Assembly (NCBI GenBank): GCA_910584155.1
Contig: CAJTYG010000002.1
Coordinates: 141,381 to 205,380, forward strand
DNA: 64,000 nucleotides
Direction: 5' to 3'
Origin: an uncultured Christensenella sp.
GTDB taxonomy: Bacteria; Bacillota; Clostridia; Christensenellales; CAG-917
Each line of letters opens with the position of its first letter. Position 1 is the stretch's first letter. The notes under the pieces are model-generated. The model did no database searches and was not told the origin of the DNA. It saw nothing but the letters and a program-made list of their open reading frames with translations. Of the stretch, positions 19,123 through 20,640 are shown one piece after another. A program made the position numbers and the translations under genes.

Positions 19123-20640
19123 TCAGAACAGCTTCTTCAAGCGGTTGATATACTCCTTGCTTTCCTGCATATTTTCCTCGCCGAACAGCTCGCTGAGGTA
19201 AAGCACCAAGCCGTCTATTTCGTCACGGATGTAAGACAGGTTTAGCGACTCGAACTTTCTGAAAATCTTATTGCACAGCACGTAGTCAAGTCCGTCAAGC
19301 TCCGTTCCGCCGCAGCCGACGTAGGACGGGACAAATTCCTTGAGCTGCTTTACGATACGGTTACCAAACGCAAGTCTGAAGTGTTCGATAACGTAGTCGT
19401 CAAGCTGATTGATTTTGTCAAGGTTGTCCTGCGACACCTGATGTATTTCCTGCGCCTTTTTAAACTCCGCTTCGAGGTGCTTGTAGCTTATAAACAGATT
19501 GTCTTCCCACGGCGCTTCAAAAGCGATACCCTTGCTGTTGATGTTTATAGGCATAGCACGGTCGTAAACCTTATCCGATATTGCAAACGTAGAGTCGTCG
19601 TTGTTTGCCGTGCCGATAAACCACATATTCTGAGGCAGCTTGAAACGTCCTTTCTCTATGTGCTTCGGATCGTTAGGCCAACCCGACGGCACAAGGTCTA
19701 CTATCCACTCGTCACGTGACGGCATTTCAAGGATGGACAGCATTTCAGCAAAATAATACTCGACACGTGCGATGTTCATTTCGTCGAGGACAGTCAGGTA
19801 AATCTGATCGTTCCAAGTAGCCTCGTACATCTTCTTTAAAACTTCGGTTTCGTTGAAACGCTTTGTAAATTCGTTGAAATAGCCAAAAAGCTCGGTACGG
19901 TCACGCCAAGACGGCTGCACCGACGCTATCGTTGCGGGGTTGTTGAGGAATATACCCATTGCGTGCGGCAGCGACGTTTTACCTGTACCGGATATACCCT
20001 GCAAAATAAGCAGACGTGACGTTGACAGGCTTGCGACGAAAAGCCTTATGATACGGGGCTGATAAAACAGCCTCATACGTGAGCAGGCAAAATTGCGGAA
20101 TTTATCGCAAAACTCGGGAAGCGTGATTTCGTCGTCGTAAACGGGCGGCACATAATCCGCATATATCTTATCAATTTCGGTAAGCTTGTAAAAACGAGAC
20201 TCGCCTGTCGGGCTTTTTTCCTTGCCTTCCTCGCCCTCTGCGCCCTCTTCCTCACCGTCGTAATTGCCTATGTCGCTTACACGCATACCCAAAATACGGT
20301 CCTTTTCGGCGCTCATCTTGATTATCTGCTTTTTGAGGTTTGCACATTCCTCAACAAGGTCCTGCGGCAAAACCTTTGACTTGCTCAGCCTTGCGAGCTT
20401 GCGCAGCCCGAAAGCGATCAACACGATGATAGCAACTATAACGGCAACGATAAGTATGATAAATATTATCGCAACCGCCCATTCTCCGGGACCGAAATAC
20501 TCGGTGTAGTTTTTAAATGCGTCAGAATAACCCTCGTTGTAAAAGATATGTAAAAAGCCCCAGAAAATACTTCCCAGTCCCTTATCGTAAAACGCTCCTA
20601 AAAACGCCTTAAGGAACTCAAATACAAGATTTATATTCAT
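19123..20640 (-). CDS. McrB-family AAA+ GTPase with N-terminal transmembrane anchor
   Basis: 505 aa. TM helix at ~aa 54-78 (WAVAIIFIILIVAVIVAIIVLIAFG), Walker A GISGTGKT (215-222), and Walker B VLDEMNIARVEYYFAEMLSILE. The McrB signature is FIGTANNDDSTFAISDKVYDRA (cf. E. coli McrB MNTADRS...RRRF). Confidence 0.8.
   Translation of the reverse strand: MNINLVFEFLKAFLGAFYDKGLGSIFWGFLHIFYNEGYSDAFKNYTEYFGPGEWAVAIIFIILIVAVIVAIIVLIAFGLRKLARLSKSKVLPQDLVEECANLKKQIIKMSAEKDRILGMRVSDIGNYDGEEEGAEGEEGKEKSPTGESRFYKLTEIDKIYADYVPPVYDDEITLPEFCDKFRNFACSRMRLFYQPRIIRLFVASLSTSRLLILQGISGTGKTSLPHAMGIFLNNPATIASVQPSWRDRTELFGYFNEFTKRFNETEVLKKMYEATWNDQIYLTVLDEMNIARVEYYFAEMLSILEMPSRDEWIVDLVPSGWPNDPKHIEKGRFKLPQNMWFIGTANNDDSTFAISDKVYDRAMPININSKGIAFEAPWEDNLFISYKHLEAEFKKAQEIHQVSQDNLDKINQLDDYVIEHFRLAFGNRIVKQLKEFVPSYVGCGGTELDGLDYVLCNKIFRKFESLNLSYIRDEIDGLVLYLSELFGEENMQESKEYINRLKKLF

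Follow-up and report, generated by a model that had tools for sequence, protein, structure and literature searches.

A membrane-anchored McrB-family GTPase encoded with two SipW-type signal peptidases in an uncultured Christensenella species

McrBC is the textbook GTP-dependent restriction enzyme, and homologues of its McrB subunit usually carry an N-terminal domain that reads DNA. A 64,000-nucleotide stretch from an uncultured Christensenella species (contig CAJTYG010000002.1 of GenBank assembly GCA_910584155.1, positions 141,381 to 205,380; here called the window) raises the question of what such a GTPase does when a membrane anchor stands in place of the DNA reader. An earlier note, made from the sequence alone, had drawn attention to the gene at 19123..20640 of the reverse strand and had read it as an McrB-family GTPase of this kind. 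The computational analysis described here places the gene second in a four-gene locus that also encodes an McrC-like partner and two SipW-type signal peptidases. The operon is a CoCoPALM, a class that was already named in 2024 and is uncharacterised, and it matches the published features of that class except for the reported FtsB homology. We are highly confident of this identity, both for the GTPase and for the operon. The two SipW genes, the operon, its order-wide vertical conservation and the existing name all lie outside the earlier note. The locus may be an exapted McrBC module that serves the cell envelope and not a restriction enzyme, and the evidence for and against this is weighed below.

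The GTPase and its N-terminal anchor

The open reading frame (ORF) at 19123..20640, which lies on the reverse strand as do all four genes and their features, encodes a protein of 505 amino acids (aa) as the earlier note had it. Family searches, alignment, an AlphaFold2 (AF2) model and Foldseek together describe this protein as a membrane-anchored McrB-family GTPase of the NxD clade. Its AAA+ core and helical lid make up aa 151-505 (19126..20190), a boundary supported by phmmer, alignment, AF2 and Foldseek. The Walker A motif GISGTGKT (aa 215-222, 19975..19998) is invariant in an alignment of 32 homologues of 62-96% identity, and the LDEMN of Walker B, N346-D349 and D360-R361 are among the other invariant columns. 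Walker B, VLDEMN (aa 284-289, 19774..19791), was placed by phmmer alignment to McrB and by the homologue alignment. Beyond these motifs lie two segments of McrB type, ARVEYYFAEMLSILE at aa 291-305 and FIGTANNDDSTFAISDKVYDRA at aa 341-362. Both stand where the earlier note put them, and phmmer pairs the E. coli McrB segments DEINRA...FGE, MNTADRS and RRRF with the motifs of the GTPase. The signature N346-N347-D348-D349 (19594..19605) is of the NxD type as defined by Bell et al. (PMC11090510), and R361 (19558..19560), which aligns with the arginines of RRRF, is a candidate arginine finger. In one homologue of 646 aa, P0073, some 140 aa of the AAA+ domain are duplicated exactly within the protein; this is probably an artefact of assembly or gene calling, and the sequence was set aside.

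Searched exhaustively with HMMER, 1.8 billion representatives of 50%-identity clusters yielded relatives of the GTPase in 8181 clusters at E<=1e-3 and in 748 at E<=1e-30, and the match is therefore not due to chance. Which AAA+ family these relatives belong to is a separate matter, as the only AAA match in Pfam is the generic AAA_5 at a sub-threshold score, and RavA appears with MCM among the Foldseek matches at E 1e-4 to 1e-3. Both observations would be expected if the gene encoded a MoxR/RavA-type chaperone ATPase whose DUF2357 neighbour is a coincidence. By fold, however, the best match is McrB (6hz4_D, E 2.5e-6), and McrB is also the only PDB sequence matched over the AAA+ core, at E 8e-7 with the single protein and 8e-8 with the family profile. 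No MoxR, RavA, CbbQ or NorQ sequence in the PDB was matched by either query even at E<=10, and the other weak PDB matches fell on the N-terminal segment or near chance level. McrB is likewise the sole NCBIfam match, at E 1e-6 and far under the cut-off, and the similarity to E. coli McrB amounts to about 30 bits. The N-x-D-D and ...DR motifs, which are specific to McrB, can be aligned and do not vary among the aligned homologues, and a DUF2357 partner is encoded in 72 of 80 loci compared, including all 53 with enough flanking sequence. A MoxR/RavA-type chaperone is thus very improbable, and on sequence grounds the protein is an McrB-family AAA+ GTPase, in agreement with the earlier note.

Most of the 150 best representative clusters carry the signature GTAN-x-D-[DE]-ST, in which x is variable and D invariant; in the window it reads N-N-D-D. 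As described in PMC11090510, this NxD variant, usually followed by D or E, defines a branch of McrB GTPases related to CoCoNuT. N-termini within the branch are diverse, and among the same 150 clusters they contain one transmembrane (TM) helix in the closest relatives, two or four to five in others, or are long and without a TM helix. Core identity to these long representatives, whose CnuB-like nature is assumed, is 35-45%. Many NxD GTPases at 35-41% identity (relatives P0281-P0386) have four to five predicted N-terminal TM helices and one has about eight, a polytopic variant that does not appear in the consulted portions of PMC11090510.

The N-terminal region of the window protein is made up of four elements. 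Its single TM helix spans aa 52-80 (20401..20487), where the 19-residue Kyte-Doolittle mean rises to 3.85; the earlier placement at aa ~54-78 (20407-20481) was arithmetically correct and falls within this peak. The AF2 model, with a mean pLDDT (predicted local distance difference test) score of 72, contains helices at aa 3-22, 29-32 and 36-45, a long helix at 51-87 and a further one at 92-118. Preceding the membrane span are aromatic-rich helices (aa 1-50, 20491..20640) with a mean hydropathy below 1, a hydrophobic moment of up to 1.28 and a net charge of -3. These are predicted to be amphipathic and to lie outside the membrane, as their hydrophobicity is too low for a membrane span. The coiled-coil-like stretch and acidic linker of the earlier description are both found in the model, as an amphipathic stalk helix at aa 92-118 (20287..20367) with conserved E98, L102, E112 and K113, and as a disordered Gly/Glu-rich linker at aa 119-150 (20191..20286) that precedes the AAA+ domain, has pLDDT below 50 over aa 117-145 and varies in length in the alignment. 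Lysine and arginine are in excess on the C-terminal flank of the TM helix in all 32 homologues (5 against 1 in the window protein), so the positive-inside rule predicts an external N-terminus and a cytoplasmic GTPase domain.

No DNA-binding family was matched by aa 1-150 in Pfam even at E<=10, which together with the TM helix and the predicted cytoplasmic GTPase agrees with the proposal that an anchor has replaced the DNA-recognition domain. A weak profile match of aa 8-111 to the pore and coiled coil of a bacterial Na+ channel (E 0.017) was judged compositional and rejected. The anchor can also be compared with FtsB, which it resembles in architecture (TM helix at aa 52-80 followed by a helix at aa 92-118) with the predicted topology reversed. 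With four N-terminal segments as queries at E<=10, Pfam returned only sub-threshold families of bitopic membrane proteins and no FtsB or DivIC homology; FtsL gave sub-threshold matches in homologues, among them one at E 0.005. The coiled coils of FtsB and FtsL lie outside the cell. The stalk of the GTPase is predicted on the cytoplasmic side, and the resemblance is therefore architectural, which speaks against a role in cell division that is considered again below.

Neither the GTPase gene nor the gene that follows it is preceded by a Shine-Dalgarno match of at least 4 nt, while about 22 of the 37 large ORFs of the window have one, as the earlier note had remarked of the GTPase gene. The leaders of both genes (19092-19122 and 20641-20670) are A/T-rich. 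Absence of the motif is common to most members of the close clade, which start with MNINLVFEF..., and distant orthologues carry GAGG or AGGAG.

The operon and the systems it resembles

The four genes are co-directional and are separated by gaps of 85, 31 and 21 nt, in the order SipW-like peptidase, GTPase, DUF2357 partner and second SipW peptidase. By consensus match a promoter-like site (TTGACA-17-TATAAT, 12/12 positions, 21923..21951) lies about 190 nt upstream of gene 1, and by pattern match a terminator-like hairpin with a T-run (15902..15922) lies directly after gene 4. Together with the short gaps, these patterns predict an operon.

The partner, gene 3 (16704..19091), is an McrC-like protein of 795 aa characterised by Pfam, alignment and AF2. 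DUF2357, the McrC N-terminal domain, spans aa 10-162 (18606..19064; Pfam E 2.3e-7, 30.8 bits against a gathering cut-off of 23.3) and contains a small predicted β-hairpin at aa 110-120 that carries the invariant K111. The first 345 aa are very conserved and are followed by an acidic disordered stretch, a coiled coil and a Lys/Glu/Pro-rich tail; the length of this tail accounts for the spread of family members from 655 to 1245 aa. The coiled coil consists of long predicted helices within aa 432-593 (17313..17798; AF2 helices 432-450, 460-518 and 533-593 at pLDDT ~75-87), and conserved columns of the family alignment extend over 410-540. Within the otherwise disordered tail a motif, VDExKVxVGxIxF, is conserved at aa ~668-678 (17060-17090) and occurs twice in longer homologues. 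Searches of Pfam, NCBIfam and PADLOC found no nuclease family in the partner, and no PD-(D/E)xK motif was detected. This is consistent with the view of the earlier note that bulk DNA is an unlikely substrate. The AF2 model of the partner is almost entirely helical and has no β-sheet core, at a mean pLDDT of 50; Foldseek against the PDB returned nothing under E 0.4, and neither the single sequence nor the profile matched an McrC among PDB sequences. Given the poor model and the lack of a Foldseek match, no statement at the level of fold can be made on the N-domain of the partner.

Gene 1 (20726..21736) encodes a SipW/Sec11-type signal peptidase paralogue of 336 aa, recognised by NCBIfam, its TM helices and its catalytic residues. 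The matches to TIGR02228 (E 4e-11) and SipW (E 4e-7) are both under the cut-off. An N-terminal TM helix (aa ~14-50), the catalytic domain and a C-terminal TM helix (~199-235) are followed by an acidic tail of roughly 100 aa that is probably cytoplasmic. Gene 4 (15951..16682), of 243 aa as listed, has two TM helices and an acidic C-terminal tail and is the clearer family member: SipW is matched at E 5e-26, TIGR02228 at 68.3 bits against a cut-off of 51.85, and Pfam Peptidase_S26 at threshold. Its listed TTG start is probably wrong, as an ATG seven codons downstream at nt 16661 (MAKETQSK...) fits the orthologues better. In gene 1 the pairs S67/M68, H119/R120 and G139/D140 are kept in at least 90% of 64 orthologues, and in gene 4 S66/M67, H110/R111 and G130/D131 in at least 90% of 78. 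With the catalytic serine (SM), histidine (HR) and aspartate (GD) conserved in this way, both peptidases appear to be active. After the second TM helix the two paralogues also have a short helical motif in common, LDTMTEEEKQLLMQQLL and VDTLSEEQRNQLLEELK (20726-21000 and 15951-16150), which in each case precedes an acidic low-complexity tail; the cytoplasmic GTPase or its partner may dock there.

Among known systems the closest is CoCoPALM, which Bell et al. (2024, eLife, PMC11090510) define in a single paragraph, deferring its analysis to a future paper. There it is described as an NxD GTPase fused to an FtsB-like TM and coiled-coil domain, with coiled coils on the McrB as well as on the McrC homologue and with associated genes of the signal peptidase family. 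The window operon shares the NxD GTPase with a TM and coiled-coil N-terminus, the adjacent DUF2357 homologue with a coiled coil, and the signal-peptidase-family genes, and there are no differences in kind. No later literature on CoCoPALM was found, and the text supplements of the eLife paper do not mention it. Added here to the published description are the two SipW paralogues, catalytically intact by their conserved residues and fixed in the operon, and the predicted topology with the N-terminus out and the GTPase in. The order-wide vertical conservation, the slow evolution, the linkage to a TYAWF-motif family of secreted proteins, and the absence of that family beside the window copy are also new.

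E. coli McrBC (PDB 6hz4, 6ut6, 7vsr) shares with the window an AAA+ core with Walker A and B motifs, the Asn/Asp signature and the arginine finger, and, encoded directly downstream, a partner that carries the McrC N-terminal domain. In contrast to E. coli McrBC, the window GTPase has a TM anchor where McrB has its N-terminal DNA-binding domain and a signature that, on comparison with relatives, reads N-x-D-D where McrB has N-x-x-D, its partner has no detectable PD-(D/E)xK nuclease, and its operon is chromosomal and conserved like a core gene. The two marks of canonical McrBC Type IV restriction, a DNA reader on McrB and a nuclease in McrC, were thus not found. CoCoNuT systems, as described in PMC11090510, have GTPases with long soluble coiled coils and operons with HEPN or other nucleases; CnuB and CnuC share with the window proteins the NxD branch, coiled coils and McrC homologues that often have no active nuclease. 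Unlike them, the window GTPase combines a TM anchor with a stalk of only ~27 aa, and its operon contains two signal peptidases and no nuclease gene.

Conservation and the question of defence

Across Christensenellales and related Clostridia the four genes stay together and are under strong purifying selection. When one genome per species was scanned, relatives of the GTPase turned up in 118 species, at 96% down to 61% identity, and these species are uncultured Christensenellales or other Clostridia, mislabelled bins aside. In each of the 53 loci whose flanks are long enough, the partner and two or more Sip genes are found, and the set is kept even where ComM and DprA no longer adjoin it or where the order is GTPase-Sip-partner-Sip. 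A link to competence through ComM and DprA was considered and rejected, as these neighbours are kept in 27 loci only. Divergence from the closest species was compared as the nonsynonymous rate (dN) alone and without ratios, since the synonymous rate (dS) is saturated (>1.3). The dN of the GTPase is 0.028, compared with 0.048 for the partner N-domain, 0.053 for a neighbouring gene of the EF-G family, 0.119 for ComM, 0.217 for DprA and 0.31-0.35 for the peptidases. By this measure the GTPase is evolving at a slower pace than the adjacent EF-G-family gene. Searches of 72,556 plasmid and 50,697 phage records returned no copy covering at least 80% of the GTPase; the matches that were found are AAA+ cores only, at no more than 39% identity. 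The slow dN, the universal four-gene set and the lack of a full-length mobile copy therefore argue for a vertically inherited core function and not for a mobile defence gene.

This bears directly on the alternative that the locus descends from Type IV restriction and serves in anti-phage defence, with the McrB/McrC pair sensing infection and causing abortive infection via the membrane and the peptidases acting as accessory or effector proteins. Its McrBC ancestry suggests as much, as do its close sequence relatives, the CoCoNuT-like systems, which PMC11090510 predicts to be defensive. The GTPase also matches the PADLOC profile PDC-M26A at E 2.5e-36, in two stretches of which the best covers profile positions 314-436 of 724 and lies in the AAA+ core; the term "PDC-M26" was not found in the literature searched. 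Relatives that match in the core only are found on plasmids and in two phage records, and TM effectors are common in defence systems. Defence genes, however, are usually patchy and fast-evolving, whereas here the same four genes are found in every sufficiently sampled related species and the GTPase has a lower dN than the EF-G-family gene. Neither a nuclease nor any other recognisable toxic effector was found, PADLOC gave no significant match for the partner or either peptidase, and no full-length copy is known from the plasmid and phage records. The operon also lies among housekeeping genes of ordinary GC content and is linked to genes for secreted proteins. On balance, a defence function is unlikely.

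Two neighbouring features of the window are recorded here for completeness. Between the EF-G-family gene and the operon lies a gene for a small LURP-one-related, Tubby C-terminal-like protein (22076-22561, reverse strand; Pfam LOR E 4e-6). Proteins of this kind are uncommon in bacteria, and the gene is not conserved beside the operon. At the far end of the window, 56000-64000 is an island of low GC content (28-36%, against ~48% elsewhere) that encodes a protein with an Mrr_cat restriction-endonuclease domain (60860-61771), a DUF2971 protein (59360-60775), a GNAT acetyltransferase, a CPT/zeta-toxin-like kinase and a Listeria-Bacteroides repeat protein. The island was probably acquired horizontally and is possibly related to defence.

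Candidate secreted substrates and a proposed envelope role

Clustering of ORFs around the operon revealed a fast-evolving family of putative secreted proteins, here called AWF, that is present in 45 of the 80 loci, in one to three copies within a few kilobases of the operon, and, where the upstream flank reaches at least 5 kb, in 38 of 46. The N-terminus of these proteins is almost invariant, MKKKGLIISTVVMVVVLIASLTTATYAWF, and the remainder is highly divergent, with a mean column identity of 19% and a C-terminal IWxxGxDxDC motif. Examples are found at 58-1101(-) in locus L003 and at 4422-5363(+) in L016. In one lineage (L069-L080) two to four AWF genes lie inside the operon, between the genes for the partner and the second peptidase; in L078 family members are found at 6007-6846, 11383-12360, 12382-13671, 13709-14719 and 14745-15419, all on the forward strand. 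Other lineages have small families with FAWF, AVWI or FAFF motifs after the operon. Two AWF members match NCBIfam TIGR04088, "SipW-dependent-type signal peptide", slightly under the cut-off, and an aromatic residue at P2' is reported to make TasA dependent on SipW (PMC10269814). No AWF protein matched a Pfam family above the cut-off or a PDB entry, and the relatives returned by database search are unnamed hypothetical proteins only.

The tapA-sipW-tasA locus of B. subtilis offers a parallel, in that it too encodes an archaeal/ER-type signal peptidase together with its substrates, which have an aromatic residue after the predicted cleavage site. In sequence, the candidate AWF substrates are not detectably similar to TasA or camelysin. 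The window operon differs from the TasA system in its two SipW paralogues, whose acidic tails are long, and in its GTPase pair derived from McrBC. To our knowledge, the TasA system has no NTPase.

In structures of McrBC (PDB 6hz4, 6ut6), McrB forms a hexameric ring into which McrC is inserted, and hydrolysis of GTP is stimulated by the partner. By analogy, the GTPase could form an McrB-like hexamer on the cytoplasmic face, with its six TM helices pinning the ring under the membrane and its six short amphipathic N-termini on the outer side. The partner's DUF2357 domain would plug into this ring, the β-hairpin at aa 110-120 with K111 being the candidate element, and its insertion would trigger GTP hydrolysis as McrC does for McrB. 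Such a motor may be coupled to SipW-type processing and to the export or assembly of fibre-like AWF proteins in place of a nuclease acting on DNA, the link possibly being made by the coiled coils and both peptidases' acidic cytoplasmic tails. A KK...TATYA|WF signal is conserved in the putative AWF substrates, whose genes lie beside the operon in most related genomes. Taken by itself, this fibre-export function is plausible but falls a little short of an even chance; when it is joined with the identity of the GTPase and the operon into a single claim, the balance tips slightly in favour. A broader proposal can be made more tentatively, that CoCoPALM in general is not immune but a GTP-powered surface-filament or secretion machine of monoderm Clostridia, whose hexamer and two SipW peptidases process and polymerise TasA-like TYAWF subunits. 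This is possible, though it has more against it than for it.

Several points weigh against an export role. What ties the GTPase to the peptidases is gene neighbourhood only. The terms "fibre" and "TasA-like" are a guess from the signal peptide, because the AWF proteins match no Pfam family or structure. No AWF gene was found in the 64-kb window itself, either by regular expression over ORFs of at least 100 aa or by tblastn with 74 family members, and none lies within 8 kb of the operon in the four closest relatives (L001, L002, L013, L047). The PDC-M26A match to the GTPase has to be counted here too, although its best stretch is confined to the AAA+ core. As the model of the partner is poor, the absence of a nuclease fold is a statement mainly about its sequence. 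Finally, the FtsB homology reported for the anchor of CoCoPALM was not reproduced with Pfam.

The last of these points leads back to cell division. It is conceivable that the operon is a housekeeping module of the envelope or of division, in which an FtsB/FtsL-like anchor directs the GTPase to the divisome or to membrane-protein quality control and the SipW peptidases process membrane or secreted proteins in general. Such a module would fit the conservation of the operon at housekeeping level and the clade of the window copy, which has no adjacent AWF genes, as well as the FtsB homology reported in PMC11090510 and the single FtsL match described above. The reversed predicted topology counts against it, as does the finding that no division genes are conserved beside the operon; ComM and DprA adjoin it in only the 27 loci already mentioned. 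The linkage of AWF-type genes in 38 of 46 loci also weighs against it. We consider this alternative distinctly improbable.

An export or assembly role for the CoCoPALM operon would be comparable in function to the pairing of ATPase and prepilin peptidase in type IV pili, although built from unrelated parts. Whatever its function, the locus represents a branch of the McrB family in which no DNA reader or nuclease was detected and which is predicted to be fixed in the membrane and joined to signal peptidases. Across Christensenellales, an abundant gut order, its GTPase is as tightly conserved as a gene for a translation factor. The operon boundaries, predicted topology, invariant residues and candidate substrates given here make the class directly testable. 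If the proposed role is right, an immune motor would have been recruited for cell-surface biogenesis, and gut Firmicutes would have a new route to extracellular fibres.

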